Assembly (NCBI RefSeq): GCF_900115225.1
Contig: NZ_FOVR01000001.1
Location: 501,727 to 533,726 of the forward strand
DNA: 32,000 nt
Source of the DNA: Cohaesibacter marisflavi
GTDB lineage: Bacteria > Pseudomonadota > Alphaproteobacteria > Rhizobiales > Cohaesibacteraceae
Reading direction: 5' to 3'
Shown here: in pieces, positions 5,400-22,708 of the stretch
Position numbering within the stretch: position 1 is the stretch's first letter
How the letters are laid out: each line of letters starts with the position of its first letter
Notes under the pieces: model-generated
Seen by the model: only the letters and a program-made list of their open reading frames with translations
What the model was told of the DNA's origin: nothing
Databases searched by the model: none
Translations under genes and position numbers: made by a program

Positions 5400-5408
5400 G
5401 GGGCGATC

Positions 5409-5759: not shown

Positions 5760-5932
5760 AGCAGGTTGCTTTTGCCTATCTTGGATGGAGCCCTAGCGAG
5801 TTCAATCAAGCAACCTTGCGCGATTATGCCGACGCGATAGAGGGTTTTAACCAGCGGTATGGCGAGCCAGAAAAACCAACCATGTCCAAGGAACGGTTCG
5901 CAGAATTGAGGGCGCGATATGGCGGAAACTGA
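5720..5932 (+). CDS. -1 frame extension of the chaperone (g10.1 / rcc01693-like segment); predicted fusion product spans 5409..5932
   Basis: The -1 frame is open from 5651 to 5932 and encodes VAFAYLGWSPSEFNQATLRDYADAIEGF, resembling the LGLSP.EFW.LTP.E motif of the small GTA tail chaperone. No ATG, GTG or TTG start lies upstream of that motif. Confidence 0.55.
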   Translation, partial: AGRGSDRIPFRRIKQVAFAYLGWSPSEFNQATLRDYADAIEGFNQRYGEPEKPTMSKERFAELRARYGGN

Positions 5933-7802: not shown

Positions 7803-7814
7803 GGGCTTTCAGAC

Positions 7815-8444
7815 ATGGCGGCATTTTTGGAAATTGTCTTTCCGGTCAAAATCGGACTTGGCGCAACGGGCGGACCACAGCGCAAAACGCAAGTGGTGCA
7901 AAGCGGATCGGGCAAGGAAGAACGCAATCAGCAATGGGCCAATTCCCGGCGCTCTTGGGATGTCGGCACCGGCATCCGCGATATATACGAGGCCGAACAA
8001 GTGCTTTCTTTCTTCGAGGATGTGCGCGGGCGGCTTTCCGGCTTTCTCTTTTGCGACCCGTTTGATTTGCGCTCTTGCGCCATTCTGGGCAACCCGAGCG
8101 CGACGGATCAGGCGATAGGCACAGGCGACGGGGCAACAACTGCCTTTCAGCTTACCAAGACTTACGGCAGCGCAAATCCATACATGCGCAAAATCAGCAA
8201 ACCGAAACAGGATTCCGTTTTGGTGGCTGTTGATGGCGTGGCGCTCGATGCGGCTGATTTCAGCGTTGATCACACAACCGGTCTTGTCACCTTGGCGGAC
8301 CCGCCAGCGGTGGACGCGGCTGTTACGGCTGGCTTTGAATTTTATGTGCCGGTGCGCTTTGACACAGATGATCTATCCATCGCTTGGGAAAATAACGCGC
8401 TTATCTCTGTTCCTTCCATTCCCGTTCTGGAGCTGATTTTATGA
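7815..8444 (+). CDS. DUF2460 / TIGR02217-like distal tail protein (RcGTA g12 equivalent)
   Basis: The N-terminal F.E..FP..I..G..GGP...T.V....SG.E.RN pattern is present. Position after the tape measure; ATGA overlap at 8441-8444. Confidence 0.75.
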   Translation: MAAFLEIVFPVKIGLGATGGPQRKTQVVQSGSGKEERNQQWANSRRSWDVGTGIRDIYEAEQVLSFFEDVRGRLSGFLFCDPFDLRSCAILGNPSATDQAIGTGDGATTAFQLTKTYGSANPYMRKISKPKQDSVLVAVDGVALDAADFSVDHTTGLVTLADPPAVDAAVTAGFEFYVPVRFDTDDLSIAWENNALISVPSIPVLELIL

Positions 8445-9340
8445 AGACTTTGCCCGATGGCATGCAAGCCCATCTTGATAGCGGGGCCACAACGCTTTGT
8501 TGGTGCTGGAAACTGACCAGAAGCGATGGGGCAATCTATGGCTTTACTGATCATGATTGCGATCTGGTTTTTGACGGTGTGACCTATTCGGCGGACAGCG
8601 GTTTTACAGCAACCGAGCTGCAATCAAGCCTTGGGCTCTCGGTTGATAATGTGGATGTTGAAGGCGCGCTTTCTGCTGATTTCATCACTGAGGAAGACAT
8701 TGCGGCGGGGCTCTATGATGGGGCAGGGGTTGAGGTCTGGCGGGTCAACTGGATGGATCTTGCCCAACGCCTTTTGATGCGCTCGGGCAATCTTGGCGAG
8801 ATCACGCGCGGGGATACCTATTTCAGTACGGAAGTGCGCGGGCTGGCAGCTGTACTACAGCAAAAGCAAGGGCGTGTTTATCAGGCCGCTTGTGATGCCA
8901 CCTTGGGGGATGAGCGGTGCGGGCTGGATGTTTCAAACGGGGCCTATTCGGTTGATGTGGTAGTAACCGGACAGACAGGCGGGCAAGTGCTCCAGATTTC
9001 CGGGGCTGATGCCTATGAGGCCAATTGGTTTGACCGGGGCACTCTGACCTTTACCAGTGGCGAGAATGACGGGATCAGCTACGCGCTGCAAAGCCATGTG
9101 GTGACAAGCGGTATTGTCTCTGTTGGCGTCTGGTCACCTTTCCTCAAGAGCGTTGCTGTGGGTGACACGATCACCCTTGTTGCTGGCTGTGACAAGCATT
9201 TTGCGACCTGCGTCAAGAAATTTGACAACGGGGCGAATTTTCGCGGATGCCCGCACATGCCGGGCAATGACTTTGTGACCACCTATCCAAGCCCTGACAG
9301 TGACGATTTATCCGGTGAGCATCGCTATGACCAATATTAA
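8441..9340 (+). CDS. DUF2163 / BR0599-like tail hub protein (RcGTA g13 equivalent)
   Basis: The motif L.SGATTLC.CW...R.DG...GFTDHD.DL.FDG.TY is characteristic of this family. Confidence 0.75.
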   Translation: MKTLPDGMQAHLDSGATTLCWCWKLTRSDGAIYGFTDHDCDLVFDGVTYSADSGFTATELQSSLGLSVDNVDVEGALSADFITEEDIAAGLYDGAGVEVWRVNWMDLAQRLLMRSGNLGEITRGDTYFSTEVRGLAAVLQQKQGRVYQAACDATLGDERCGLDVSNGAYSVDVVVTGQTGGQVLQISGADAYEANWFDRGTLTFTSGENDGISYALQSHVVTSGIVSVGVWSPFLKSVAVGDTITLVAGCDKHFATCVKKFDNGANFRGCPHMPGNDFVTTYPSPDSDDLSGEHRYDQY

Positions 9341-9767
9341 ACGAGACCAGATCATAGAATGCGCGCGGGGCTGGCTGGGCACGCCTTACCACCATCAAGC
9401 CAGCGTCAAGGGCGTTGGCTGTGATTGCCTTGGATTGGTGCGGGGTGTTTGGCGCGGGCTTTACGGCTTTGAGGCTGCAAATATTCCGGCCTATTCGCCA
9501 GATTGGGGCGATGCCACCAATGCAGAAAGCTTGCTATCTGCGGGGCGAACCTATTTGCAGGAAATCGCCCTTGATGAGATGGGGCCGGGGGATGTGTTTG
9601 CGATCCGTTGGCGCGGGGCTAAGAGCGCCAAACATCTCGGCATCCTGACCGGTGAAACGCGATTTATCCACGCCTATGAAAAATGTGGTGTTGTCGAGGT
9701 GAGCTTATCCCCTCACTGGCGGCGGATGATTGCCGCTGCTTTCCGCTTTCCCAATCTGGAGGTTTGA
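9327..9767 (+). CDS. NlpC/P60-family phage cell-wall peptidase (RcGTA g14 equivalent)
   Basis: W.GTPY.HQ......G.DC.GLV (catalytic Cys context) and a downstream H.GI motif are present. ATG at 9327; GTG at 9300 is an alternative start. Confidence 0.75.
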   Translation: MTNIKRDQIIECARGWLGTPYHHQASVKGVGCDCLGLVRGVWRGLYGFEAANIPAYSPDWGDATNAESLLSAGRTYLQEIALDEMGPGDVFAIRWRGAKSAKHLGILTGETRFIHAYEKCGVVEVSLSPHWRRMIAAAFRFPNLEV

Positions 9768-9769
9768 AC

Positions 9770-12700
9770 ATGTCAACACTGGTTTTGTCAAAGGTCGGCA
9801 CGGTGCTTGGCGGGGCCTTGTTGGGGCCAATCGGGGCAATGATCGGCGGCACGATTGGCGCGCTTGGTGGGGCCGTTATCGACAATATGCTTTTGGCCGG
9901 TGGCAAGGATACCCACACGCAAGGGCCGCGTCTTGATAGCCTGGAGGTGACCAGCTCGACAGAAGGCACCGCGATCAACAGAGCTTACGGGCGGGCGCGC
10001 ATTGGCGGACAAGTGATCTGGGCAACCACCTTGGAAGAGGTCGCCACCACCACCAAACAGGGCGGCAAGGGCGGCGGGGCAAAAGCCAAGACAACCAGTT
10101 ACACATATTACGCAAATTTTGCGGTTGGCATTTGCGAAGGGCCGGGGGTCTATCTCAACCGGATCTTTGCGGATGGGACAGAAATCGACATGTCAAAAAT
10201 TGACTTTCGCTTTTACGATGGCAGCGAAAGCCAAGAACCTGACAGCCTGATTGAAAGCGTGGAAGGCGACGGGCTGGCGCCTGCCTATCGCGGGCTTTGC
10301 TATATTGTCTTTGACCGGCTGGAGCTGACCGACTACGGAAGCCGCATTCCGCAATTCACCTTTGAAATTATCCGGCCAGCACCGACACGCCAGCTTGAGA
10401 GCGCCATTTGTGGGGTCAATCTCATTCCGGGGTCAACCGAATTTGGCTATGAGCCGGATGTGATGCTCAAGCAAGAGCTGTCATCAAGTGGCGCGGTGAT
10501 CGGGCAAGAATACGAAAATGTGCATCAGAAACAGGGCGCGTCTGATTTGTCCGTTTCTCTTGATCAACTTGCAACCGTGATGCCGAATATCAAAAGCGTT
10601 TGCCTTGTGGTGGCTTGGTTTTTTGATGATTTGCGCTGTGGTGGCTGCAGCATCCGGCCAAAAGTGGAAATCAGCACCAAGGCAACATCGCCCTATAACT
10701 GGCAGGTTGCGGGCCTGACGCGAGACACAGCGCTTTTAATCACGCAAATGACTGATGATGATGGCAATGATTATCCCGTTTATGGGGGCACGCCTTCAGA
10801 CAAAGCTGTCATTCATGCCATTACCGAGCTGAAAGCGCGCGGCTATGATGTCATGCTTTACCCGTTCATTATGGGCGATATCCCGCAAGGCAACGGCCTT
10901 GCCGATCCTTGGGGCGGGGAAGAGCAAGCCACCTTCCCATGGCGTGGCCGGATCACTTGCCACCCGGCAGCAGGGCAGACCGGAAGCCCGGACCAGACCA
11001 GCACGGCGGGCGATCAGGTGAGCGCCTTTCTAGGCTCGGCGGCTGTGGCTGATTTTTCCATTTCAGATGAAACAATCGCCTATACCGGCGCGGATGAGTG
11101 GAGCTATCGGCGCTTTGTTCTGCATCTGGCCAATCTGGCCAAAGCGGCGGACGGTGTGGCGTCAATCTGCATCGGTTCGGAAATGGTCGGGCTAACCACG
11201 GTGCGCGATGAAGCCACAAGCTATCCCTTTGTAACCGGCCTTAAAGCCTTGGCTGTTGATGTGCGGGCGATCCTTGGGGAAACGGTAAAAATCGGCTATG
11301 CGGCGGACTGGTCAGAATATCACAGCCACAGGCCGGGGGATGGCTCGGGCGATGTGATTTTCAACATGGACCCGCTGTGGTCTGATGATGATATTGATTT
11401 CATTGGAATTGATAATTATTTCCCTCTGTCTGATTGGCGGCGGGGCAGGGACCATCTTGATTATGATCAGGACGCGGGGCATGTGACGCCATACAGCCTT
11501 GATTATCTCAAGGCCAACATCGAGGGCGGGGAATATTATGATTTCTACTATGCGGACGATGCGGCGCGTGTGGCGCAAGAGCGTACAGCGATCAGCGACG
11601 GGACGCATGGGGAAGACTGGATTTACCGCCAGAAAGATTTAAAAAACTGGTGGCTCAATAGCCATTATAACAGGCCGGGCGGTGTGCGTGATAGCGCGGC
11701 AACAGGCTGGACGCCAGAAAGTAAACCAATCTGGTTTACCGAGTTGGGATGCCCGGCGCTTGATCTGGGCAGCAATCAGCCCAATGTGTTTTTTGATCCC
11801 AAATCCAGTGAGAGCGCCTTGCCCTATTTTTCCAGCGGCGCGCGCGATGATGTGCAACAGCACAGCCATTTAAGGGCAACGCTCGACTATTGGGCCGATG
11901 ATGCCAACAATCCGGCCTCAAGCCTTTATGACGGTTCCATGATCGATATGGACGCTGTGCATGTGTGGAGCTGGGACGCGCGTCCATTCCCCTCCTGGCC
12001 ATTGGATGGGGCAAGCTGGGCGGATGCGGACAACTGGCAATATGGGCATTGGCTATCTTCTCGGGTGGGCATGGTCTACATGCCCGACCTGATGCGTCAT
12101 ATCTCCGAGGAATACGGCTTTACCGCCTATGATTTTGATGCGGCTTATGGGGCCTGCGATGGCTATGTGATCGATAGCACCATGAGCTTACGCAGTGCTT
12201 GGCAACCTCTGGAACTGGCTTTCGGCTTTGACTTGATCGAAACGGGCGGCATCATCAAGGCGGTTTCCCGAAAGGCCATTCCCCTTTGTGCGGATGTTGA
12301 TCAAGAGCGCTTACAGGATACGAACGGCGAGAGCGGTGGCGAGCTGGTCACGCTCACACGGGCGCAAGAAAGTGAACTCGCACGCGGCGTGCGCATTACC
12401 TATCTCAATGCGAACAAGGCTTACAATTCCGGCACAGTGACCGCTTGGAATAATTTTACAGGCGCAACGAATGTGTCTGAAAGTCAGCTTGCTATTGTCA
12501 TGGATGAGGACAGGGCGCAAGGCGTGGCTGAGTATCTTTTGCAAGATGCTTGGGCCGCGCGGGAAACCGGACAATTTGCGCTTATGCCTTCCCTGCTGGC
12601 CTTGGAACCGGGCGACGTTCTGGAAGTGACCACGCAAAAGGGTGCGCGGGAATTGCGCTTGACCGATGTAAAGGACGGGGAAGGGCGCACATGTGAGGCA

Positions 12701-13714
12701 AGCGGATTTATTGATGCCGGCTTGTCTGTTTCCGGTGCGCGCTATTCCTTGCGTTTCAGTCGGGCCAGCGCGGGACTTTCGCGCATTTTGGCGCGCTTTA
12801 TGGATTTGCCGTTGCTCCAGCCGGATAATGACCCGAATGCGGGCTATGTGGCTCTTTCTGCCAAGCGTTGGCCGGGGGCGGGGCTGGTGTTGCGCTCGAC
12901 CAATGAAAGCAGTTGGCAAACGAATATTGAATTTACCCATTCGGCCATCATTGGCGAAACCCTAAACGCCTTGGACAAAGGGCCGCTTTATGTCTTTGAC
13001 CGGGGCAATGCGCTGGAAATCGAGATTTATAGTGGCTCGTTGCTGTCTGTCTCTGAAGAGGAATTATTCTCTGGCAGCAACGCCTTTGCCATCGAAACAA
13101 GTGCGGGCGTTTGGGAAATCATCCAAGCGCAAACTGTGGAGCTGATCGGCTCAAAACGTTATCGCCTGACGGACCTTTTGCGCGGGCAGCTCGGCACAGA
13201 AAACGCTATGCTGGAAAGTGTCGCGGCCGGGGCGGCGCTGGTCTATCTTGATCAGGGCGTTGCGCAAGCAGACATGGGCCTATCTGATATCGGCATTAGC
13301 TATTATTGGCGCTATGGACCGGAAGGCGAAACGGTTGGCTCGGATCTCTTCACAACCGAGCAACACGCCTTTAGCGGGCGGGCGCTCAAGCCCTATGCGC
13401 CAGTGCATGCCCGATGGGCAAGCGATGAGGCGGGCGATCATACCATTACCTGGATCAGACGGACGCGGCTGGATGGCGACGGGTGGGAGCTTTATCAAGT
13501 GCCTCTGGGGGAAGAGCTGGAGGCCTATGAAGTCGATATCATAAGCGGCGGCGATGTGGTGCGCACCATCGAGACGAGCACGCCAGAAGCCAGCTATAGC
13601 GCCACACAAAGACAGACCGATCTAGGCAGCGCAACGGCTGGCTATGAGGTGGCAATCTATCAAATCAGTCAAACAATAGGGCGCGGGGATGCGCTGAAGG
13701 TGGGGTGGGGGTGA
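9770..13714 (+). CDS. Host-specificity / baseplate 'megatron' protein (RcGTA g15-like; glycoside-hydrolase-like TIM-barrel region plus phage tail domain)
   Basis: 1,314 aa. ATG at 9770 follows GGAGG at 9758-9762. The Gly-rich hydrophobic N-terminus (GGALLGPIGAMIGGTIGALGG) is typical of the family. It is the last gene of the conserved tail block. Confidence 0.85.
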   Translation: MSTLVLSKVGTVLGGALLGPIGAMIGGTIGALGGAVIDNMLLAGGKDTHTQGPRLDSLEVTSSTEGTAINRAYGRARIGGQVIWATTLEEVATTTKQGGKGGGAKAKTTSYTYYANFAVGICEGPGVYLNRIFADGTEIDMSKIDFRFYDGSESQEPDSLIESVEGDGLAPAYRGLCYIVFDRLELTDYGSRIPQFTFEIIRPAPTRQLESAICGVNLIPGSTEFGYEPDVMLKQELSSSGAVIGQEYENVHQKQGASDLSVSLDQLATVMPNIKSVCLVVAWFFDDLRCGGCSIRPKVEISTKATSPYNWQVAGLTRDTALLITQMTDDDGNDYPVYGGTPSDKAVIHAITELKARGYDVMLYPFIMGDIPQGNGLADPWGGEEQATFPWRGRITCHPAAGQTGSPDQTSTAGDQVSAFLGSAAVADFSISDETIAYTGADEWSYRRFVLHLANLAKAADGVASICIGSEMVGLTTVRDEATSYPFVTGLKALAVDVRAILGETVKIGYAADWSEYHSHRPGDGSGDVIFNMDPLWSDDDIDFIGIDNYFPLSDWRRGRDHLDYDQDAGHVTPYSLDYLKANIEGGEYYDFYYADDAARVAQERTAISDGTHGEDWIYRQKDLKNWWLNSHYNRPGGVRDSAATGWTPESKPIWFTELGCPALDLGSNQPNVFFDPKSSESALPYFSSGARDDVQQHSHLRATLDYWADDANNPASSLYDGSMIDMDAVHVWSWDARPFPSWPLDGASWADADNWQYGHWLSSRVGMVYMPDLMRHISEEYGFTAYDFDAAYGACDGYVIDSTMSLRSAWQPLELAFGFDLIETGGIIKAVSRKAIPLCADVDQERLQDTNGESGGELVTLTRAQESELARGVRITYLNANKAYNSGTVTAWNNFTGATNVSESQLAIVMDEDRAQGVAEYLLQDAWAARETGQFALMPSLLALEPGDVLEVTTQKGARELRLTDVKDGEGRTCEASGFIDAGLSVSGARYSLRFSRASAGLSRILARFMDLPLLQPDNDPNAGYVALSAKRWPGAGLVLRSTNESSWQTNIEFTHSAIIGETLNALDKGPLYVFDRGNALEIEIYSGSLLSVSEEELFSGSNAFAIETSAGVWEIIQAQTVELIGSKRYRLTDLLRGQLGTENAMLESVAAGAALVYLDQGVAQADMGLSDIGISYYWRYGPEGETVGSDLFTTEQHAFSGRALKPYAPVHARWASDEAGDHTITWIRRTRLDGDGWELYQVPLGEELEAYEVDIISGGDVVRTIETSTPEASYSATQRQTDLGSATAGYEVAIYQISQTIGRGDALKVGWG

Positions 13715-13892
13715 TTGTGCGTCTGGGCTTGGCAACTTTTAGCTAAAATGAAGGAGCACTGGCACACGCAATAAAAGGTGACCGGTAATCGAGACCGATA
13801 GGCGACATTCGACTGTTCTGGGGTGGCTCTGACGAGCTTGCCAAAAGCAGCTGTTCGCACGAGACGCAGCATTGGTCTCTCATTAAACCGCT

Positions 13893-14330
13893 TTAAGATG
13901 AAACAGCCTTGTCAGAGACAATGCGCTCCAGAGCGTTATATGCGTCCTGAGCAACATCGACCCTAAGATGGCATTTGGCTGAAGAAGTAACGTCAACGGG
14001 AGGGCTGATGTCTGCAAGCTTTAAGACCTGCCTGAGATGGGGGCCGGATAGAGGAATATAATCGAATTGCTCTCCAGAAAATCGATTATATATGCGGCCA
14101 ATAAACCACTTGCTCCGCCTCTTTGCTTGTTTTGCTGAAAACAATCGAAAATGAAGAACCCCTAAGAGTTCCTGATCATCCAAGGGGGCGGCATCAGCAG
14201 CTTTGCTAAATGCTGAGAATGCAGGCGACATTCCCGCTGTTACCGCGTCTGAGAAACCCCGAGACGTCGCGCTCTGCTCTTCACTGATCCGAATGATCGG
14301 TTGCGTATTCATTGCACTGCCCAGAACCAA
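13893..14330 (-). CDS. Hypothetical protein (145 aa from TTG at 14330; 139 aa from ATG at 14312)
   Basis: The ORF lies 12 nt downstream of the 79-aa gene on the same strand. No domain recognised. Confidence 0.45.
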   Translation of the reverse strand: MVLGSAMNTQPIIRISEEQSATSRGFSDAVTAGMSPAFSAFSKAADAAPLDDQELLGVLHFRLFSAKQAKRRSKWFIGRIYNRFSGEQFDYIPLSGPHLRQVLKLADISPPVDVTSSAKCHLRVDVAQDAYNALERIVSDKAVSS

Positions 14331-14342
14331 TGAAATCCATAT

Positions 14343-14582
14343 TCACCAAACAGCGAATAATACAACAATCAGGACAACCCATGGGATTAGTCCCAACCAT
14401 CCTGCCATAGTCGCGTCACACAAATATCGGCTGTTTTTTGAGCTCTTGAAGCCAAGCCAATTATATCTCTTTTCTTCAGACGATATTGGTTCGACAGAAA
14501 TGTAGCCAAATGACACAATGGGCAGCAGAATTCTCGCAGTTGAGTATCCAACGGCTTCAAGTAGAACATCATAAACAAACAT
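14343..14582 (-). CDS. Small hydrophobic / membrane protein (79 aa)
   Basis: ATG at 14582 is preceded on the minus strand by AGGAGA with about 7 nt spacing. The C-terminal segment GWLGLIPWVVLIVVLFAVW looks transmembrane. Confidence 0.55.
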   Translation of the reverse strand: MFVYDVLLEAVGYSTARILLPIVSFGYISVEPISSEEKRYNWLGFKSSKNSRYLCDATMAGWLGLIPWVVLIVVLFAVW

Positions 14583-14800
14583 AGGAACTCTCCTGCTTGC
14601 TGGGACGATACACCAATAGAGGTTATTTGAAAATGGTGCATCCGACTGGGATCAACAAACGGGGCCAACAGATTCGGTCCGAAGCAGTCCTCGGTCGTTC
14701 TATAGCCTGTTGTATAGCAGAACGCGCGATTGGACATTCGTTGACCGCCCAAGGACGGAGTTACAGAGTTCGACACAGCTATGTGTGAGTATGGAGATCA

Positions 14801-15277
14801 ATGATGAAACTAGAAGAGTACTATAGACCTCGCTTGTCCGAGGCTGGCTACGATCTTTTGGCTGTTTTCAGCAGGTTTGAATACGCACTGAAGAAGGGCG
14901 GGTTTCGCCGAGAAAACTACCCTGACGCAGCCTGGCCAACATTTGCAAACCGTCTTCCCGATCCGTTTTTTCAAAAGATGCGAGAGGCTTCGGAAGCCCA
15001 AATCTTTTTTGAAGCGCCGCCAGATCATCTCGTAACCACGGCTGACGGGGGTGTAGCCTGGTCAGGAGCACCAATTACACCAAACGACGCGGCCAGCCTC
15101 TTTAAAAGCATCAAGACTGCACGCAACAACCTGTTTCATGGGGATAAGAAACACGACAACGACCGAGATACCCGGCTAATGAAAGCGGCATTGTTTGTGC
15201 TGAACGAAGCCTACCAAGAAGCGGAAGTAAATGAAGGGTTTGATAGTTTTGTAAGCGCCATGGAGTTTGGTCTTTAG
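14801..15277 (+). CDS. Hypothetical protein with a HEPN-like Rx4H motif (TARNNLFHG)
   Basis: 158 aa with GGAG at 14793-14796 upstream (ATG at 14801 or 14804). It has a single R-N-N-L-F-H-G motif in a predicted helical C-terminal half. Convergent with the TIR gene. Confidence 0.5.
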   Translation: MMKLEEYYRPRLSEAGYDLLAVFSRFEYALKKGGFRRENYPDAAWPTFANRLPDPFFQKMREASEAQIFFEAPPDHLVTTADGGVAWSGAPITPNDAASLFKSIKTARNNLFHGDKKHDNDRDTRLMKAALFVLNEAYQEAEVNEGFDSFVSAMEFGL

Positions 15278-15364
15278 CATATCGGCCCTATCCTGCCGTT
15301 CGATTGATCAGGGGGGGGGCTCCGACGCGTTTCCCGAAAGCTGCCGTAAAAGCTCAAAGCTACT

Positions 15365-16567
15365 TTAGTCGTTGGAGGTCCGTTGTAAGAAGACTACCCC
15401 TTGTTGATCGTCAGGGAGCCCCACTGACCCAAAATCCCCTATTTCCAAGCTAGTTTCAGAAAATGAGATATTAGATCGGTAAATGCTAAACATCGAAGAG
15501 CGATCATCACGAGGTCGATTGTTTCGCACCTCACATCTTTCGAAAGAAACATCACTCTTTTTTATTATAAACGCATCAAAGCAGAAATTGTCATAAAACT
15601 CTACTTCTACCAATTTCAAAGAAGATGTCTCTATCGCTCTAAATACGCCATATGAGCACTTGTAGATATCGCAGTTCTGAAATCGAACGAATTGGCTATT
15701 CTCAATTTCAAAACCATAGGTTCCACATCCGAAGATTTTGCAATTATCGACACATATTGAAGAGCAATGCTTGAAGTTTAACACAGCACCTTTACACTCC
15801 CCTCCCTTCGGCCAGTGACCAAGGGCTGTGCCTTCTATTGTGACACCATGGCAATCTTCAAAACTCATCGTAGTTGCATAGGTGGGTTCAACGGTTATAC
15901 GAGCATCACTGCTTCCCTTAATTGTTAGATTGTTTACGCCTCTAAATACCAGTTCCTCTCCGTCGAACACCTCTCGAGCAAACACGTGATGATTATCAGG
16001 AACTTCAATCCCAGAAAGAGAAAAGCTCCTTCGAACGTAGATACTTGTATTTGAGCCTATGCAACTCAGGAACTCATCTGCCGAATAGACGTCTACTTTA
16101 CGATGATCAATCGCTCCTACCTCTCGCCCTTCGAGCGACGAGATATGGGTGACTAGCTCAGAGAAGTTGGCCTGAAAGCAGTCTATGTACTGATACTGAG
16201 CAAACGAAATGCCATCAACACGAGTTTTCGGTATTTGGCATTCCTCAATTCTCACCGGCAATACAAACGTTTTTCCAGCAGGAACAAGCGCCAGCCTTGC
16301 TAGCGCTTGCCGAAATTCTGATTGTACATATCCGACTTTCTGCACAGAGATTTCAGAGAACAAAGGTAAAAAGTATTTTGATGTTCGGATAACATCGCGA
16401 AGCCGGTCTTCCCACAATTCCCCTGGCTTCAGTCCTTCAAGTTTGTACGGAGAAGGAGGTTTGTCCATCCACGGACTTAATCCTGCCTCGCGCAACCTTC
16501 GATACAAAGCTTGTGCTTGTAGCAAGTCTTCACTTGCGTATGATATAAAGCAAATTGGGTCTGTCAT
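15365..16567 (-). CDS. TIR-domain protein fused to a right-handed parallel beta-helix repeat region
   Basis: The N-terminus has ICFISYASED..A..L...L...G...WMD...L.PGE.W...L...I..S.YFLPLFS......GYVQSEF (TIR core with a candidate catalytic Glu). The C-terminal ~200 aa have periodic ~22-aa units (NLTIKG, CHGVTIEG, ICVDNCKIFGC, VRFQNCDIYKC, VSFERCEVRNN). ATG at 16567; TTG at 16576 is an alternative start. Confidence 0.75.
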   Translation of the reverse strand: MTDPICFISYASEDLLQAQALYRRLREAGLSPWMDKPPSPYKLEGLKPGELWEDRLRDVIRTSKYFLPLFSEISVQKVGYVQSEFRQALARLALVPAGKTFVLPVRIEECQIPKTRVDGISFAQYQYIDCFQANFSELVTHISSLEGREVGAIDHRKVDVYSADEFLSCIGSNTSIYVRRSFSLSGIEVPDNHHVFAREVFDGEELVFRGVNNLTIKGSSDARITVEPTYATTMSFEDCHGVTIEGTALGHWPKGGECKGAVLNFKHCSSICVDNCKIFGCGTYGFEIENSQFVRFQNCDIYKCSYGVFRAIETSSLKLVEVEFYDNFCFDAFIIKKSDVSFERCEVRNNRPRDDRSSMFSIYRSNISFSETSLEIGDFGSVGLPDDQQGVVFLQRTSND

Positions 16568-16926
16568 AGTATCCAATACAATATCAAATTATTAGAACTT
16601 GCAATTGCATTACGTCGCACATACTTCAAAAAATAACAACCAAAAGAGTTGCGGATATGCCGCCTCTAAAACTCGAAATAATCAGCTTTTTAATACCCAA
16701 TTTGGACACGAAGCGAATTAGTGCGTCGCAGCATTTGTTAAAGCAGCTCTTTCAGCATAGAGATTGGAATTCGCTGCCCAAAGCCGGGATTCGCCAGAGA
16801 TGACTTTCAAGAATCCTGCGTCCCCATTCCTAACATTCGATTAAAGCAGGACATATTGAAAAGATATGTGACGGAGTATGGTGGATGTGTTAGGCTGGAG
16901 CAGCTCAAAAGATAAAGAGAAAATCA

Positions 16927-17520
16927 ATGGCGAGTATAATAAGCACTATTACTATTGCTGTTATTGGGGTTTTCCTGACTGCATGGTTTAATCACATTCA
17001 TTGGTTAAACAAAAATAGAGAAGAAATAAGAATTAGAGAAACTATTGAAGCAACTTCTTTAGTTAGAGATATTGCAAATATCTTTGACAAAAGAATTGTT
17101 ACTCAGAGGCTAATGCTGAGAAATATATTTTTGGAAAACAGGGAGGTTATGCTAGAAGAATACAAAAAATCTCTGAGAGAATATAGCGAAAGATATAACG
17201 AAGTTAGATTTAGACTGCGATATTTTTCAAGTTACAGTTATGTGATAGACTTTGAAAGAGAGCTAAACGACAAAATTGTTGAAAATTCATACGAAATTGA
17301 GCATATATTAAAGTACGGTAGACCAAAAAAACTAAAATTTTCAGAATTAAACGAGCAATTAAATATTATTTCAGTAAGAGTGTATGAGTACTGCGCGCTG
17401 TTAACTTCAGATATTTCTTCTGAAAATATTGGTGTCTTAAAAAAAATAAATGATTGGAAGGATCCAAATAACAAGTATATAAGTTCTTTGTTTTTAATTA
17501 AAAGACTTCTTTCTTTGTAA
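16927..17520 (+). CDS. Hypothetical N-terminally anchored membrane protein (197 aa), very AT-rich
   Basis: It has one N-terminal TM segment (IISTITIAVIGVFLTAWF) followed by a charged helical region. The 3' end overlaps the convergent GT51-like gene by 23 nt. Confidence 0.5.
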   Translation: MASIISTITIAVIGVFLTAWFNHIHWLNKNREEIRIRETIEATSLVRDIANIFDKRIVTQRLMLRNIFLENREVMLEEYKKSLREYSERYNEVRFRLRYFSSYSYVIDFERELNDKIVENSYEIEHILKYGRPKKLKFSELNEQLNIISVRVYEYCALLTSDISSENIGVLKKINDWKDPNNKYISSLFLIKRLLSL

Positions 17521-18193
17521 GACGAAGAGATGCAAGATAGTCCATTCTTTTGTGAACCCGGCTTGTCCACCAAGGATTGGAAGATTGGAATAATTGAAGA
17601 ATTTCTTCTGGACTTGAAAATACATCGCGATCACTTACCGAGTAATATATATTGGGAGGCAACGGGTAGGGCAAAAGACTCGCAATAAAAGCACTTTGTT
17701 CAGGCGTGAGGTTGGAGGGGGCCGTATCAAATAGAAATTTTGAAGCTTTAATGATACCGTGCATGTTTGGCCCAAAATATGCAGAATTTATGTAAGCAAG
17801 TAGTATTTCCTCTTTTGAACGATGTAAATTTATAATAGCCGCAAAAATTATTTCGCGAATTTTTCGAGATACAGTTCTTTCCCTTCGTCCTGTGCAGGTT
17901 CTAACCAATAGTTGCTCTATGGTGCTGGTTCCGCCGAATTTTCCATAAGTAATGTATCGTTTTAGGCCTCGAGGTAGAGAGCGTAGTTCAAATCCTAGAT
18001 GCAGAAAATACCGCCGATCTTCGAGAAGAAGGATATCATGGATTTGTTCTGGTATGATTTTATCTTCTTCGGAAAGAAAAAAAGAAGAATCTACAGAATA
18101 ATATTGATCAATCCAATTTAATAGTTCATCAAGGTCAACATTAAGACGAATCAGTAACTTTTTAAGGCTTAAATTATTTCGCGTTTTGGTCAT
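17498..18193 (-). CDS. GT51 (peptidoglycan glycosyltransferase / transglycosylase)-like protein lacking a membrane anchor
   Basis: GT51 motifs occur in order: EDRRYFLHLG (EDxxFxxHxG), GGTSTIEQL (GGSTITQQ-like), RKIRE (RKxxE), EILLAYINSAYFG and LTPEQSAFIASLLPYP. No hydrophobic N-terminal segment in the first 60 aa. Confidence 0.65.
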   Translation of the reverse strand: MTKTRNNLSLKKLLIRLNVDLDELLNWIDQYYSVDSSFFLSEEDKIIPEQIHDILLLEDRRYFLHLGFELRSLPRGLKRYITYGKFGGTSTIEQLLVRTCTGRRERTVSRKIREIIFAAIINLHRSKEEILLAYINSAYFGPNMHGIIKASKFLFDTAPSNLTPEQSAFIASLLPYPLPPNIYYSVSDRDVFSSPEEILQLFQSSNPWWTSRVHKRMDYLASLRLTKKEVF

Positions 18194-18690
18194 TTTTCAA
18201 AATCAAACTTCGTTAAATATTCTACACCTGTCAAAGAACATTAGGCTTATCAAAACCACCCTTCCTAATTGTTTCCCTTGAAGGTATTCATGATATCACG
18301 CAAATCTTATGTTGTTGCACATATTTGAGCAAACACTATTGAGCTCTGTTGTAAAAAAGTCGCAAGGAATTTCATTAAAACACGTTGGGCGAAATGGTCC
18401 CGAAAAACAAGACAAAGCACAAACGTCGGCTATGAAATGATGTTGGTTTTGACATTAGCGGTAGCACAATTAGGAAACAAATTTACCATTTGAGGCCAAG
18501 TAAATTTGCAACAGAGTCCGATTGGCCGCTTCCGCCTGCGGCATTAGAGATCTCGCACCAGCGTAAGATAATCGCTTTCCGCCCCTTTTGCAAAACAACC
18601 TTCTGAAGGCTCGAATTTCTACTCATATCGAAAGCTCGCATGCAGTCAGATCGTGATCTCTCTTAACTCTCACTTTTCAACCACCACAAT

Positions 18691-18736
18691 CCATCCCTTA
18701 CCCTCGTGTTGATCGAAACCAACTGAGGGTCTTTTC
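18691..18736 (+). promoter_or_regulatory. Conserved 5' leader hairpin (copy A) sequestering the SD sequence of the DUF2793 gene
   Basis: ACCCTC at 18700-18705 pairs with GAGGGT at 18725-18730, and GAGG is the SD 8 nt before ATG 18737. By-eye alignment gives 38/49 identical positions with copy B at the same spacing to the start codon. Confidence 0.5.
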
Positions 18737-19723
18737 ATGTCGGCTACAGCGCTCTTGGCTTTGCCCTATATTGCAGCCAATCAGAATCAGAAACACGTGA
18801 CCCATAATGAAGCCTTGCGGATGTTGGATGCGCTTGTGCAGCTATCCGTATTGGATCGCGATTTGACAGCGCCACCCGATACGCCAAGCGATGGCGCGCG
18901 TTATATCGTGGCTGATGGGGCAACTGATGCATGGGCCGGATGGGATGGCAGCGTTGCCGCTTATCAAGATGGGGCGTGGGTTGAATTTGTGCCTTTGCCG
19001 GGGTGGCTGGCCTGGGTATCCGATGAAAGCAAACTCCTTTGCTATGATGGGGCTGACTGGGTTGATTTCCTTTCTGCTGGCCTTGGTACGGCTTTGGGGA
19101 ACGGCTCTTTTGACAAGATCGGGGTGAACGCCTCGGCAGACGCAACCAACCGCCTAGCGCTTTCCTCGGCGGCTAGTCTTTTCAATCACGCTGGAAACGG
19201 CCATCAAATCAAGGTCAATAAAGCGGCGGGGGCTGACACAAACAGCCTGTTGTTCCAAACCAATTGGTCTGGCCGCGCTGAAATGGGCTGCGCGGGCAAT
19301 GATGATTGGTCCATCAAAGTGAGCGCGGACGGGACAAGCTGGCTTACGGCTCTTTCTATCGATAGCGCAACCGGCCTTTTGAAAGGCCTTAATTGGGTTG
19401 GTGATGTTGTCGACGGTGGGCTAGGGGCTGTCATTGAAAGCGGAAGTAACGCAAACGGAACCTATGTTCGTTTTGCTGATGGATTGCAAATCTGCACGTC
19501 TTTGGTGACGTCCAGTGACAGCACTTATGTCATTTGGACCTATCCGGCTGAATTCTATGGTGCGGCTGAAAATGTGATGATGACAGCGCGGGGCTTGACG
19601 CCTTATCACGCGCAGCCCAACGGCTCGGGCTCAACGGCAACCATTGCCGTGAATTGTTGGGATCTGAGTGGCACGCGCGTTGAAACTGACATTACCGTTT
19701 TTGCAATTGGGCGTTGGAAATAG
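18737..19723 (+). CDS. DUF2793-like phage/GTA tail-fibre or spike-like protein, copy 1
   Basis: The N-terminal LPYI...Q.QKHVTHNEAL..LD.LVQL.V.DRDL..PP motif and Y.DG.W.F.P..GW pattern are present. It follows the tail genes. Its paralogue is at 28017-29003. Confidence 0.75.
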   Translation: MSATALLALPYIAANQNQKHVTHNEALRMLDALVQLSVLDRDLTAPPDTPSDGARYIVADGATDAWAGWDGSVAAYQDGAWVEFVPLPGWLAWVSDESKLLCYDGADWVDFLSAGLGTALGNGSFDKIGVNASADATNRLALSSAASLFNHAGNGHQIKVNKAAGADTNSLLFQTNWSGRAEMGCAGNDDWSIKVSADGTSWLTALSIDSATGLLKGLNWVGDVVDGGLGAVIESGSNANGTYVRFADGLQICTSLVTSSDSTYVIWTYPAEFYGAAENVMMTARGLTPYHAQPNGSGSTATIAVNCWDLSGTRVETDITVFAIGRWK

Positions 19724-19731
19724 AGGCTATC

Positions 19732-20079
19732 ATGCAAATCAATCTCATCCCACAAAGGCGCGATGATGCGCTTGAATTGTCTTTTGCCGATGATGTGTTG
19801 ACCATCAACGAGGATGCTCTGGACTTGTCGAGCATTCCAGCCGGGGCAACCTTGCCGATCGATGCGGTGGATTGTAAATGGCTGACCTCGGATATCGAGC
19901 GCGACGCGGACGGGGTGCTTTCCCTCTCTCTCATTTTGCCGCTTGGCTTCATTCCCGACCCGACAACAGACGAAGCAAAAGCGGTGCTCTATCCCGATCC
20001 TTTGGAGGTGACCGAAGAGGGCGCAATCACATTACCAAGCTATGAAGCAACGGGGGCAACAGATGACAATAACGGTTGA
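19732..20079 (+). CDS. Small conserved partner of the DUF2793 protein, copy 1 (115 aa)
   Basis: ATG at 19732 follows AGAGG. The N-terminus MQINLIPQRRDD matches MKINLVPQRRDD in the paralogue at 29013-29342. Confidence 0.65.
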   Translation: MQINLIPQRRDDALELSFADDVLTINEDALDLSSIPAGATLPIDAVDCKWLTSDIERDADGVLSLSLILPLGFIPDPTTDEAKAVLYPDPLEVTEEGAITLPSYEATGATDDNNG

Positions 20080-20488
20080 TCTAAGCCAGCTTGTCACGGC
20101 TGAAACCAAGGCCAGCACGGCGCTTGAAGCGGCAAAGGCCAAAGCCCTTGCCACGGTGACCGACCAAATCAGCGCCGCGCGGGGCGTGCTGATGACTGAC
20201 TTGATTGGTCAAGAGATGATCTATCTGGCCAAAGAGCAAGAGGCGAAAGACTGGCAGGCCTCGGAGTCGCCAGACCTTGCCGATTTTCCGCTTATGTTTG
20301 CTGAGGTGGGCATAACCGCCAGCACGGCGGATGAGCTGGCCACGGTTTGGCTCACGATGGCCAACCAATGGCGACAAACGGCGGCAAGCCTTGAAGCGAT
20401 CCGGCTTAAATCAAAAAGCGATATCAAAAGCGCGGCGAGCGCTGAAGCGGTGCAAAGTGTGGTTGATGCCATCGAGTGGCCTGCTTAA
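20063..20488 (+). CDS. Hypothetical phage protein, possibly a tail-fibre assembly (DUF4376-like) protein
   Basis: 141 aa. It overlaps the previous gene by 17 nt. It is Ala-rich and helical, with an EQEAKDW...P...FA...G.....ELA pattern reminiscent of fibre-assembly proteins. Confidence 0.45.
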   Translation: MTITVDLSQLVTAETKASTALEAAKAKALATVTDQISAARGVLMTDLIGQEMIYLAKEQEAKDWQASESPDLADFPLMFAEVGITASTADELATVWLTMANQWRQTAASLEAIRLKSKSDIKSAASAEAVQSVVDAIEWPA

Positions 20489-20516
20489 GCGAGCCTGAGA
20501 AATCAACCAAGCCAAA

Positions 20517-20562
20517 CCGGCCTTTACCCTCGGATTGATCAAATTCAACCGAGGGTATTTTT
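20517..20562 (+). promoter_or_regulatory. Conserved 5' leader hairpin (copy B) sequestering the endolysin SD sequence
   Basis: ACCCTCGG at 20526-20533 pairs perfectly with CCGAGGGT at 20549-20556. The geometry matches copy A. Confidence 0.5.
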
Positions 20563-21312
20563 ATGTCTAAAAAGGAAATCAAGGCCATCCAGAAGGCACT
20601 CAAGGCAAAGGGCTTTTATAGCGGTGCAATCGACGGATTGTGCGGGCGGCTGACCAACCGGGCAATCATCGCTTTTAAGAAGTCAATTGGCTATCGGGCG
20701 CGCGCTTATGTGGGGCCGCTCACAAAAGCCGCTCTGTTTGACGGGCGCGTCGACATGGTGACTGCAGGCCGGACCAAACGAGAAAAGGCCATTGCGGCGC
20801 TGGATGAACCAAAGTGGCTTCAGGTGGCGCGATCCTATCTGGGCTTGCGCGAATATAAGGGCAACCGGCATAACCCGAAAATTCTGGAATGGTGGCTTAA
20901 AATCCGTATGCCGTTCACCGATGATGAGACGCCATGGTGTGCGGGCTTTGTTGGCGGGGTGCTGGAAGAATGCGGGATCCGCTCGACCAGATCGGCGGGC
21001 GCTCGCTCTTACCTCTGGCAGAATTGGGGCTTGCGGCTGAGTGGGCCTTGTGTGGGCGCTGTGGTGGTGTTCTGGCGGGGAAGCAAGACAGGCTCAAAGG
21101 GGCATGTTGGCTTTGTGGTCGGACGTGATCAGCATGGCAATCTGATGGTGATCGGCGGCAACCAGGGGGACGCGGTGACAATCCGGCCATTCTCGACAGA
21201 CCGCGTCTTGTCCTATCATTGGCCTGAAGATGATATCCCATATAGTGGGGGCGGCTTTGATAGCTTGCCGCTTGTCAACTCGGATGGAACGCTTTCAACC
21301 AACGAAGCGTAA
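20563..21312 (+). CDS. Endolysin: N-terminal peptidoglycan-binding domain plus C-terminal CHAP/NlpC-P60-like (TIGR02594-like) amidase domain
   Basis: IQ.AL...G.Y.G.IDG..G..T..AI..F is a PG_binding_1-type repeat. The C-terminal half has PWCA.FV and GHVGFVVG motifs (Cys and His of a cysteine peptidase). Confidence 0.8.
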   Translation: MSKKEIKAIQKALKAKGFYSGAIDGLCGRLTNRAIIAFKKSIGYRARAYVGPLTKAALFDGRVDMVTAGRTKREKAIAALDEPKWLQVARSYLGLREYKGNRHNPKILEWWLKIRMPFTDDETPWCAGFVGGVLEECGIRSTRSAGARSYLWQNWGLRLSGPCVGAVVVFWRGSKTGSKGHVGFVVGRDQHGNLMVIGGNQGDAVTIRPFSTDRVLSYHWPEDDIPYSGGGFDSLPLVNSDGTLSTNEA

Positions 21313-21388
21313 GAAGATATCAACGGGGCGGGAAGCCGTGAGACTCTTTGTGGGAAGGTTTTTACAACTCACAAAAGGAGCAAGTTTC

Positions 21389-21868
21389 ATGACTTCCCGA
21401 CTTTCATTTTTTCCAGCCCTTGCCATTGGCCTTGCCTTGGCTTGCATGTGCGCGGCACCGGCCAGCGCGGCAACTATCGACTTTTCCCCTCTCACCTCCC
21501 TTGCAAATGATGTCATGCAGACTGTTGTCAGCCTGTTGGCCTCTGTGATCGTCGGCGGGGCTGCGTGGGCGGCAAAACGCTGGTTTGGCCTACAGGTGGA
21601 CGCCAAACAGCGCGAAAGCCTGCACGGGGCCATTGAGCGCGGTATAAGCAGCGCCCTTGATGCCGCTCTTAAAAGGCTGGATGGCAAAACCACCCTTGAA
21701 ATTGACAATGAGGTGATCGCGCAAGTCGCAAACTATGTGGTCAAGCTGAGCCCTGACGCGGTGAAATACTTCAAGCTGACACCGGACAAGCTGGCCGATC
21801 TGATCACGGCGAAACTCGGTGAGCGTTTCTTGCTCGATGCGGACATTGTCGCGCAGCCAAGCGCATAA
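21389..21868 (+). CDS. Holin-like or lysis-associated membrane protein
   Basis: ATG at 21389 follows AAGGAG at 21375-21380. It has a hydrophobic signal-like N-terminus (ending APASA) and a second TM segment (VVSLLASVIVGGAAWAA). It lies between the endolysin and the spanins. Confidence 0.45.
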   Translation: MTSRLSFFPALAIGLALACMCAAPASAATIDFSPLTSLANDVMQTVVSLLASVIVGGAAWAAKRWFGLQVDAKQRESLHGAIERGISSALDAALKRLDGKTTLEIDNEVIAQVANYVVKLSPDAVKYFKLTPDKLADLITAKLGERFLLDADIVAQPSA

Positions 21869-21886
21869 TCAGGGAGGGCTGGCGGC

Positions 21887-22108
21887 ATGTGGGAATGGAT
21901 CATAGGCGCGTTGCTTGGCTTTCTGGGTGAGCTTTTGCGCTCACTCTATGCCGACTATACCGCCAGCCAATCCAACGAAGAGATTGGCCAGCTCAAAGAG
22001 CAAAAGGCCAATCTTGAAAAGCAACTCATTATCAGCAAACAGGCGCAAGCCATAAGGGACAAGGTGAATGCGGAAACTGACCTTAACGTTCTTATTGACG
22101 GGCTTTAG
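21887..22108 (+). CDS. Putative i-spanin (Rz-like): N-terminal TM plus coiled coil
   Basis: 73 aa. TM segment WEWIIGALLGFLGELL, then a charged coiled region. AGGGAGGG lies 8 nt upstream. Confidence 0.5.
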   Translation: MWEWIIGALLGFLGELLRSLYADYTASQSNEEIGQLKEQKANLEKQLIISKQAQAIRDKVNAETDLNVLIDGL

Positions 22109-22346
22109 CCTGTTGCTGGCGGGCTGTGCTTCGCAGACCATCACGATAGACAGCCTGTGCGAAGCAAAGGCCGTGCCTGTCTCGCCAGAAATCAAGGAGC
22201 AATTGCGCGCCTGGCTAACGCCTGAAGGCAAACTCAAAGCCGATGCACCCAAGGGCGCGGCGGCATTCCTTAAAAGCCTGCGGGCGAATAATGACCTTAT
22301 CAAAAGCAATTGCAGCAAAGGGGCAGGTGATGACGACCGAGATTAA
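22068..22346 (+). CDS. Putative o-spanin (Rz1-like) outer-membrane lipoprotein
   Basis: A lipobox (LLLAGC) follows a short signal peptide. The start overlaps the 3' end of the i-spanin gene by 41 nt in another frame. Confidence 0.55.
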   Translation: MRKLTLTFLLTGFSLLLAGCASQTITIDSLCEAKAVPVSPEIKEQLRAWLTPEGKLKADAPKGAAAFLKSLRANNDLIKSNCSKGAGDDDRD

Positions 22347-22521
22347 AGATTTGGTCTATATCGGGGGAATCGTTGTGGCCGTTGCGGGCTCTCACTTCAT
22401 GCTACGCGCCCGCGTCATGGTTCTGGAAGAACGCATCAAGGGCTATTCCGAGGCCATGAAACGCATTTTCGAAAGCCTGAGCCGCATCGAGGAAAAGCTA
22501 GACGGAAAAGCGGATAAGTGA
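22330..22521 (+). CDS. Small membrane protein (63 aa) with a C-terminal coiled coil; last gene of the lysis block
   Basis: ATG at 22330 lies inside the ORF-track ORF 22243-22521. TM segment VYIGGIVVAVAGSHFML is followed by a helical charged tail. Confidence 0.45.
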   Translation: MTTEIKDLVYIGGIVVAVAGSHFMLRARVMVLEERIKGYSEAMKRIFESLSRIEEKLDGKADK

Positions 22522-22634: not shown

Positions 22635-22708
22635 TGGCTGGGGATCCTGGACTCGAACCAGGACCGACGGAGTCAGAGTCCGCTGTTCTACCATTAAACT
22701 AATCCCCA
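22635..22708 (-). tRNA. tRNA-Gln (anticodon CUG), 74 nt with encoded CCA
   Basis: The reverse complement folds as a cloverleaf: acceptor TGGGGAT/ATCCCCA, anticodon stem GCGGA/TCCGT, loop CTCTGAC, T-arm CCTGG-TTCGAGT-CCAGG, discriminator G, then CCA. Confidence 0.9.

Follow-up and report, generated by a model that had tools for sequence, protein, structure and literature searches.

The chromosome of Cohaesibacter marisflavi contains, within the 32,000-nucleotide stretch analyzed here (the window; public locus tags SAMN04488056_101459-101463), a head-tail gene cluster which, judged from its sequence, is that of an RcGTA-like gene transfer agent (GTA), and in this cluster the junction between the g15-like gene and the tail-fiber gene of the DUF2793 family is occupied by about 5 kb of unrelated DNA. 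Comparison with the same junction in related strains leaves us with little doubt that this slot is a variable hotspot for cargo genes. Somewhat more cautiously, we favor as probable the full explanation of a variable hotspot in an RcGTA-like cluster whose cargo is exchanged between strains and acts in phage defense.

Across positions 7-13714, the Pfam families follow the order known from RcGTA, in agreement with a first-pass annotation that had proposed a prophage or GTA-like carrier. The slot and its two neighbors comprise the following genes, with the cargo lettered A to F:

9770..13714, plus strand: g15-like host-specificity/distal tail protein, 1,314 aa, with a 3' end that forms the conserved flank on the left of the slot
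13893..14312, minus strand: gene A, 139 aa, soluble; A-B cassette (13837-14676), downstream of B
14343..14582, minus strand: gene B, 79 aa, hydrophobic helix at the C terminus; A-B cassette, upstream of A
14801..15277, plus strand: gene C, 158 aa, with a HEPN-type motif; within segment 14686-15348
15365..16567, minus strand: gene D, 400 aa, with an N-terminal TIR domain and a C-terminal right-handed beta-helix; single-gene cassette 15349-16689
16927..17520, plus strand: gene E, 197 aa, with a predicted N-terminal transmembrane (TM) helix and four-helix bundle; partner of gene F
17498..18193, minus strand: gene F, 231 aa, with a GT51 domain and no membrane anchor
18737..19723, plus strand: DUF2793 tail-fiber gene (Rcc00171 family; DUF2793 6.6e-35); first gene of the tail-end module

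With the help of public gene calls, we set the starts of A and D at ATG codons, the true start of D being the ATG at 16567.

What had been described as a roughly 5-kb interruption of the plus-strand structural operon measures 5,022 nt (13715-18736), counted from the g15 stop at 13714 to the DUF2793 start at 18737. With a GC fraction of 0.424, as compared to 0.548 for the rest of the window, it is the lowest-GC 5-kb stretch of the window; in a 500-nt sliding profile, GC stays at 0.51-0.60 nearly throughout the window and falls to 0.28-0.49 between 14.0 and 18.5 kb, and a profile at finer resolution agreed with this. The stepwise drop that had been estimated by eye is real, as visible from the individual segments:

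13715-14685: GC 0.477
14686-15348: GC 0.510
15349-16689 (TIR cassette): GC 0.427
gene E: GC 0.291
gene F: GC 0.375
18194-18518: GC 0.363

The estimates themselves required adjustment, however. The TIR cassette, with 0.375-0.485 in 200-nt windows, does not average 37-40%, and the stretch from 16.6 to 18.4 kb, albeit the lowest zone, lies at 29-40% and not at 27-30% throughout.

All six ORFs of the island are intact. As already noted in the first-pass annotation, four of them (A, B, D, and F) run antisense to the structural genes, and Shine-Dalgarno sequences in the AT-rich part are absent or weak (before D, E, and F); the same is true of gene A, while those preceding B and C are good. The proposed TIR fusion (TIR_2), HEPN-like motif (Rx4H), and anchor-less GT51 enzyme (Transgly) were all detected, and the small membrane proteins correspond to B and E, each with one hydrophobic helix.

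The case for a hotspot comes from the same junction in relatives. Using a g15 genome scan together with exact look-ups of DUF2793, CHAP, and B cluster members, we obtained a sample of eight junctions from seven genomes of a single genus, Cohaesibacter. Apart from the window, these are occupied as follows:

L001, C. haloalkalitolerans (g15 85% identical): a 452-aa protein and a NUDIX protein; 2.2 kb, 0.36 GC
L016, second C. marisflavi genome: an AbiJ_NTD4/PDC-S32 protein (2.5e-24) and a 574-aa ATPase
L017, uncultured Cohaesibacter (5.54-Mb genome): an endolysin and three uncharacterized genes
L019, uncultured Cohaesibacter (5.39-Mb genome): A and B homologues and an 856-aa TIR/AAA protein (TIR-NLR model, 4e-9)
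L020, same 5.54-Mb genome as L017: a 525-aa HEC-04-like ATPase (2e-30)
L021, uncultured Cohaesibacter (4.87-Mb genome): an 827-aa SIR2_2-STAND protein (ThsA-like SIR2, 6e-11)
L022, uncultured Cohaesibacter (4.94-Mb genome): a 251-aa protein without assigned family

In keeping with the earlier prediction of different cargo in related strains, ortholog alignment thus returned eight gene sets for eight junctions; nowhere among these relatives are the six genes of the window a universally conserved, syntenic set of host-like composition. An all-versus-all comparison of the slots at both the DNA and protein levels identified the A-B block, present in the window and in L019, as the sole common piece. 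At all eight junctions, slot GC is below that of the flanks (0.34-0.48 versus 0.52-0.60). Because these flanks are collinear, with 90-97% identity over ~17 kb, the turnover in gene content is confined to this junction. Specifically, L016 aligns with the window in single high-scoring segment pairs, a left one of 6,129 nt (96.8%) and a right one of 11,221 nt (95.7%); for both L017 and L019, the right-hand alignment spans 11 kb at 90%.

Distant relatives, on the other hand, have a tight junction, with g15 and the DUF2793 gene separated by 48 nt in L004, ~40 nt in L042, and ~48 nt in L044. No low-GC island follows g15 in Pseudovibrio, Rhizobiales PAR1, or metagenomic relatives, for which reason we rejected the idea of a hotspot common to all GTA clusters. 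A different kind of occupant is seen in L047, whose g15 is 65% identical and whose region is listed as viral in IMG/VR: here, the junction (6634-8725) is filled by three genes of host-like GC that lie on the sense strand and are translationally coupled, and the first of them matches a tail-fiber PHROG (2e-17). These occupants look structural while the cargo of the window does not, which agrees with the previous impression that none of the island products is a structural one.

The defense-like content that had been suspected from the window alone is seen in the relatives as well, where PADLOC matches include PDC-S32, OLD/AriA/NsnB-like, HEC-04, TIR-NLR, and ThsA-like SIR2; the 574-aa ATPase of L016, for example, matches the NsnB, AriA, Old, PtuA, and GajA models (3e-33). 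Altogether, defense-associated domains or PADLOC matches are found in five of the eight slots, a count made among the slots themselves. The notion of a purely defensive slot did not hold, since the endolysin of L017 and the sense-strand tail-fiber genes of L047 show that the site is not exclusive to defense genes. The L017 endolysin (8633-9460, minus strand) combines Muramidase and PG_binding_1 domains and matches phrog_1224 (8e-69); together with its neighbors at 6424-8629, it possibly constitutes a lysis cassette. Counting this endolysin and the GT51 gene of the window, cell-wall enzymes occur in two of the eight slots.

Where the homology to relatives ends, we can delimit the slot. On the left, it stops at 13703-13813 (blastn), the exception being L019, in which it reaches 14685; on the right, it restarts at 18519-18672 (blastn breakpoints 18519, 18583, 18667, and 18672). 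The segments adjoining these breakpoints are:

13715..13813, no strand assigned: conserved spacer after g15, common to L016 (to 13813), L020 (to 13789), and L019
18519..18736, plus strand: conserved tail-fiber leader; right flank of the slot

The spacer contains a minus-strand terminator-like hairpin at 13781-13799. In the leader, the final ~70 nt before the tail-fiber ATG are conserved, by alignment, even in C. haloalkalitolerans and L021. A hairpin followed by a T-run occupies 18700-18735, with the Shine-Dalgarno sequence (GAGGG) located within the 3' arm, and an equivalent hairpin at 20526-20561 precedes the ATG of the CHAP hydrolase gene; further copies are present in L001 (~16257-16292) and L021 (~8578-8610). 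The pattern ACCCTCG-N17-YGAGGGT-NTTTT has two matches in the window versus zero expected by chance, the predicted folding energies range from -14 to -21 kcal/mol, and one position shows a compensatory change, being T.T in one copy and G-C in the other. No Rfam family matched the leader hairpin, which is a candidate regulator of either translation or termination for the tail-end genes of the GTA. Promoter and terminator scans returned no more sites than shuffled sequence.

A Pfam scan of the island revealed neither an integrase nor a transposase, and a repeat search found no direct or inverted repeat that would flank the island as a whole, both as stated in the first-pass annotation. What had been overlooked is an internal repeat: an imperfect 49-nt direct repeat (36/49 identical, z = 7.3 by local alignment) brackets the A-B-C block:

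13807..13854, plus strand: J1, first repeat copy, at the left edge of the variable region
15298..15347, plus strand: J3, second repeat copy, directly before the D cassette

The 35-nt core of this repeat (27/35) had no other match in the 550 kb of loci compared. J3 may be a fossil of the left boundary that was stranded when A-B-C was added before D, or else a preferred insertion sequence. We rejected an integron cassette array, or a site-specific origin in general, given that there is no integrase, that attC-type repeats are lacking, and that inspection of the junctions revealed no common motif; an array of this type is also contradicted by cassettes lying on both strands and by J1/J3 being the only repeat pair at the junctions. 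Replacement by recombination at a conserved hotspot, as previously proposed, is in accord with the conserved flanks and the lack of a mobility gene; the recombination step itself, that is, cargo exchange by homologous recombination on the flanks, is one that we infer from the sequence.

Sequence comparison resolves the island into four abutting cassettes (A-B, C, D, and E-F), each of which also occurs elsewhere alone. The first-pass annotation, which had deduced at least two acquisitions from the composition steps, therefore underestimated their number. In searches of NCBIfam and PHROGs with the island proteins, the only matches were to phrog_19013 for C and generic ones to GT51 and TIR families.

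The A-B cassette is 98% identical in the slot of L019, where gene A itself is 99% identical, and 90% identical at the nucleotide level in L030, a locus without GTA genes in which the cassette adjoins a Peptidase_M50 gene and a HipA fragment. Gene A has no match in Pfam, PADLOC, PHROG, or NCBIfam, and for both A and B there are no detectable relatives of known function. Gene B, a member of a five-protein cluster, reaches a Kyte-Doolittle maximum of 2.49 at residues 54-79. With dN/dS values relative to the nearest copies (8-10% nucleotide divergence) of 0.27 for A, 0.21 for B, and 0.24 for D, these three genes are therefore maintained by purifying selection.

Gene C belongs to a large family (854 representatives) and matches phrog_19013 at 3.7e-12. 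Seven of its residues (E27, K31, W45, R108, N109, H113, and K116) are invariant among 50 aligned homologues, the motif RNNLFHGxK is of the Rx4H HEPN type, and the predicted secondary structure is mainly helical. Matches to HEPN domains proper were at the margin: 15.2 bits against HEPN_Apea, which is below the cut-off of 24.4 (E 0.03); one HEPN match among 50 family members (E 0.009); and, in a search of the gene C profile against the PDB, the RNxxxH region of CRISPR-associated proteins as best match (E 0.02). A single-sequence structure model reached a pLDDT of 60, and the fold search with it gave no usable match. By its motif, gene C would be a small HEPN-type protein and probably an RNase.

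Gene D combines a TIR_2 domain (1.8e-18) with a Beta_helix domain (3.4e-9). Its residue E84, part of a GYVQSEF motif, is invariant in 15 family members and occupies what we take to be the position of the catalytic Glu, as equated at the sequence level via the TIR 'SxWcxxEL' motif. Within the helix, H251, C258, C268, C281, C299, and C304 are invariant, a conservation pattern suggestive of metal binding or of an active site; the helix as such weakly resembles those of phage depolymerases and tailspikes. The gene D family, with P0062, P0063, and P0064 among its proteins, comprises ~20 clusters and is confined to marine Alphaproteobacteria. Variants of 624 aa with an extra C-terminal domain are found in Roseobacter and Sulfitobacter. 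In L018, the D cassette, 91.6% identical over 1,343 nt, sits alone between an aminotransferase gene and moaE. The phage and plasmid collections contained no homologue of D or E.

As for known systems, the PADLOC matches of gene D were to other TIR fusions only, at E 1e-6 or weaker. We rejected Thoeris (ThsA + ThsB) because no ThsA-like gene is present in 13715-18736, and likewise rejected kinship with the 856-aa protein of L019, the similarity being at the level of the TIR domain only. With the TIR effectors of abortive infection (Thoeris ThsB, TIR-STING, TIR-SAVED, and TIR-NLR/Avs-like), gene D shares the TIR_2 domain, the Glu at the catalytic position, and a defense-type neighborhood. In contrast to these effectors, it has no ThsA, SLOG, STING, SAVED, or STAND partner or domain, and its C-terminal Cys/His-rich right-handed beta-helix results in an architecture that is absent from PADLOC. 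We predict gene D to be an abortive-infection effector that probably degrades NAD+, in which the beta-helix would serve as a sensor or oligomerization domain.

Genes E and F are convergent, with their 3' ends overlapping by 23 nt. Gene F matches Transgly/GT51 at 1.3e-31 and aligns with the GT domain of PBP1a/MtgA structures. It has ~18 homologues, all 227-243 aa long; E58, D59, R110, K111, E114, and K127 are invariant in the family, both catalytic Glu residues (E58 and E114) among them. No TM segment was found in 14 family members (F and 13 homologues), the KD19 maximum of F being 1.0. We rejected F as an MtgA equivalog since it scores 73.3 bits against TIGR02070 (MtgA), as compared to a cut-off of 182.65, and has no N-terminal anchor. 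Gene F thus shares with MtgA and the GT51 domain of class A PBPs a fold-level sequence match and all signature motifs, but differs from MtgA in having neither anchor nor signal sequence and in always having a small membrane four-helix-bundle protein as its convergent partner. From its sequence, we would consider it a catalytically intact but anchor-less GT51 enzyme. The matches of F in the phage and plasmid collections were host PBP genes in unannotated 'phage' records and hence uninformative. For gene E, an AF2 model (pLDDT 75, pTM 0.65) suggests a membrane-anchored four-helix-bundle protein of ambiguous membrane topology; Foldseek returned only generic 4HB sensor-domain matches (E >= 0.02), from which no function was derivable.

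Outside the window, the E-F pair was seen at these sites:

L023 (Paracoccus): flanked by carB and a gene for a BrnA antitoxin
L026 (metagenome): following thiE
L027/L028: following folA, identically arranged in two assemblies
3.5-kb contig carrying P0041 and P0080: fifth instance

In L023, L026, and L027/L028, F is followed by a convergent E homologue (21-51% identity) with a 3' overlap of 23-41 nt. Elsewhere, the pair constitutes a 1.3-1.8-kb low-GC islet in DNA of 65-70% GC. The gene pair is conserved in five contexts. It is tempting to speculate, although we would give this only a small chance, that E-F is a new mobile two-gene immune or toxin system with a peptidoglycan glycosyltransferase as its effector, and that GTA clusters are reservoirs of such systems. 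Gene E would then restrain F or bring it to the membrane; upon phage attack, F would polymerize lipid II or sequester it, be it on the wrong side of the normal machinery or at a distance from it, and the resulting collapse of cell-wall synthesis would abort the infection.

Taken together, we propose that the ancestral spacing between g15 and the DUF2793 gene was ~40-50 nt and that this junction, the only break of the operon in the tail end of the cluster, was opened up in Cohaesibacter. The site probably tolerates insertions because g15 ends a transcription and translation unit, the tail-fiber gene has its own leader, and the cargo is mostly on the opposite strand. The slot would gather foreign, low-GC, mostly antisense genes for non-virion proteins; its cargo would be swapped between strains by homologous recombination on the g15 3' end plus spacer on one side and the tail-fiber leader on the other, and new cassettes would be added beside old ones. 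The likely benefit to the host would be phage defense, with the slot drawing on a pan-immunity pool; both this defense role and the biochemical activities of the cargo proteins are our inference.

Several observations weigh against this explanation. No gene of the island reaches a PADLOC system model, the only matches being weak ones at the level of the TIR domain; the HEPN assignment of gene C is drawn from a motif; and three of the eight slots hold nothing recognizably defensive, one of these containing a phage-type endolysin. L047 argues that the junction is a general modular joint rather than a dedicated defense site. Recombination on the flanks is deduced from breakpoint positions alone, and these positions scatter over 13703-13813 on the left side and over 18519-18672 on the right; the J1/J3 repeat hints at another process, be it boundary duplication or a site-preferring insertion. 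Finally, eight junctions from one genus are a small sample.

Among the alternatives, the one that survives best, yet one that we consider unlikely, is that the slot is a neutral dumping ground, a nonessential gap permissive for recombination, in which selfish or addictive islets such as toxin-antitoxin-like pairs and orphan genes accumulate and decay without benefit to the host. That four of the six products are without an assigned function and that the window contains no complete known defense system would be compatible with such islets; the convergent arrangement of E and F with overlapping 3' ends is suggestive of self-regulating selfish modules, and the A-B cassette adjoins a HipA fragment in L030. 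Decay, however, is at odds with six intact ORFs, with the purifying selection on A, B, and D (dN/dS 0.21-0.27), and with catalytic residues that are invariant across the families of D, C, and F. Moreover, defense-type domains in five of eight slots would probably exceed what a random gene sample yields.

Less probable again is a scenario in which the cargo serves the life cycle of the GTA instead of phage defense and controls death or lysis of the producer cells and the release of particles. It is suggested by analogy to LypABC, an immune-like system essential for GTA-mediated lysis in Caulobacter crescentus (PMC13236601), although we found no statement that would place LypABC inside the GTA cluster. 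The position of the slot inside a GTA cluster, beside the tail-fiber and CHAP peptidoglycan-hydrolase genes, would suit such a function, as would the phage endolysin in the slot of L017, the cell-wall enzyme encoded by gene F, and the many cargo proteins of the cell-suicide type (TIR, SIR2-STAND, OLD-like ATPases, HEPN). Yet a release function should be conserved, whereas the cargo is unrelated from strain to strain and missing from distant relatives; in addition, it is low in GC and antisense to the GTA operon, and the same cassettes occur at chromosomal sites unrelated to GTAs.

Temperate phages often carry morons near their tail-fiber genes, and gene C belongs to a PHROG family while the beta-helix of D is weakly tailspike-like, but the possibility that the cargo consists of morons inherited vertically from the ancestral prophage of the GTA, to which we assign next to no probability, is effectively refuted by the comparative data, as the GC of the island is 12 points below that of the cluster, its content differs between strains with 96-97% identical flanks, there is no gap in those distant relatives in which g15 adjoins the DUF2793 gene, and near-identical cassettes reside at non-GTA sites.

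Regarding the cluster that encloses the slot, the genes 5' of it encode, in order, a portal protein, an S78 prohead protease, an HK97-type capsid protein, connector, head-completion, and tail-completion proteins, the tape measure protein, DUF2460 (g12), g13, NlpC/P60 (g14), and the g15-like protein. The clusters of relatives are annotated with DUF2460, Phage_BR0599, NLPC_P60, and GTA_TIM. The start of the g15-like gene is the ATG at 9770, preceded by GGAGG (the mechanical ORF begins at 9683), and homologues in relatives have likewise been called at 1,314 aa; its Pfam matches are GTA_TIM (2.8e-141), Phage-tail_3 (8.6e-37), and Rcc01698_C (2.4e-29). The DUF2793 family has been identified as that of the RcGTA tail fiber Rcc00171 (PMC5026251, PMC10883770). 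Located 3' of the DUF2793 gene are two small genes, a PG_binding_1/CHAP hydrolase gene, four small genes, and a tRNA-Gln gene, beyond which lie the housekeeping genes ppx/gppA, an rlmE-like FtsJ gene, a GNAT acetyltransferase gene, and hemH. No integrase, replication, or lysogeny genes are present in the 32-kb window, the 5' end of the cluster being outside of it. In relatives, a copy of the tail-end module adjoins an integrase gene, as does the whole cluster in L020. As a separate observation, the stretch 7492-7686 in the tape measure gene cannot be aligned with the otherwise 95-97% identical L016 and L020 and is probably a variable or repetitive segment.

The tail-end module (12146-22521) comprises the final third of g15 together with the cargo slot and the DUF2793, CHAP, and several small genes. 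Some Cohaesibacter genomes contain it twice, once at the ppx/tRNA-Gln locus and once beside dus, next to an integrase gene. Some of its copies start with a truncated g15 ORF of 500-532 aa, in front of which lies a Terminase_4 gene in L017 and L019 and housekeeping genes in L021 and L022, and in the copies of L021 and L022 the DUF2793 protein has a different C-terminal part. The second module may be what a deletion left of a GTA, or it may represent a small integrative element of the tail tip. In the window, tRNA-Gln(CTG) (22635-22708, minus strand) is located ~110 nt past the end (22521) of homology to the duplicated module, a position typical of an integration site. A second DUF2793 paralogue (328 aa, ~73% nucleotide identity to the first copy) has as its next gene one of 109 aa, which is akin to the gene that comes after the first copy; this pair (28017-29342), which lies 8 kb downstream after hemH, is kept in relatives.

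At the dus locus, there is a second variable region between the tail-end module and the integrase gene, again with genes that differ per genome:

L020: 13791-14523
L021: 11994-13564
L022: 12018-14454

Here, a response-regulator-like protein of L021 matches the TIR 'Effector' model of PADLOC (3.8e-9).

The common view of GTAs is that of particle machines that have been domesticated, are inherited vertically, and are controlled by the host. A fast-turnover slot of the immune type would mean that a GTA can still act like a prophage and serve as a landing pad for pan-immunity genes. Eight cargos between near-identical flanks represent a compact natural test bed for distinguishing defense from interference with the GTA, and the four uncharacterized, independently mobile cassettes are candidates for new defense systems, including the TIR/beta-helix fusion and the E-F pair. 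In a limited search, which is no proof of novelty, accessory or defense cargo inside a GTA cluster was not described in PMC5721377, PMC7360931, PMC10883770, PMC5026251, or PMC13236601.

The slot is also timely in that the release of GTAs in Caulobacter crescentus has just been found to be under the control of an immune-like system (Banks et al. 2026, PMC13236601). This co-opted system, LypABC, is a CARD-NLR-like tripartite protease/ATPase system. Like the slot, LypABC links immune-type proteins with a GTA. In contrast, the cargo of the slot is unrelated to it and strain variable, and any link of this cargo to GTA function would be hypothetical.

Fixed sites with changing defense genes have precedents in other elements. 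Rousset et al. reportedly described defense hotspots of temperate phages and satellites (P2, P4) in 2022, and a Pseudomonas aeruginosa study is said to have found defense hotspots in the chromosome that are flanked by core genes. Both kinds resemble the slot in their fixed position between conserved genes, their strain-specific low-GC gene sets, their abortive-infection-type proteins, the lack of mobility genes of their own, and a turnover attributed to recombination on the flanks. Different from the P2 and P4 hotspots, however, the slot resides in an RcGTA-like element that would be domesticated and unable to package its own cluster rather than an infectious phage or satellite, and it is so far confined to a single genus. 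Prophage morons near tail fibers, for their part, have much in common with the cargo, being independently transcribed, often antisense, of different GC, located in the late region, and non-virion in nature; the cargo of the Cohaesibacter slot differs in that it turns over between strains of a noninfectious, vertically inherited element, and in that its cassettes are also found at ordinary chromosomal sites.

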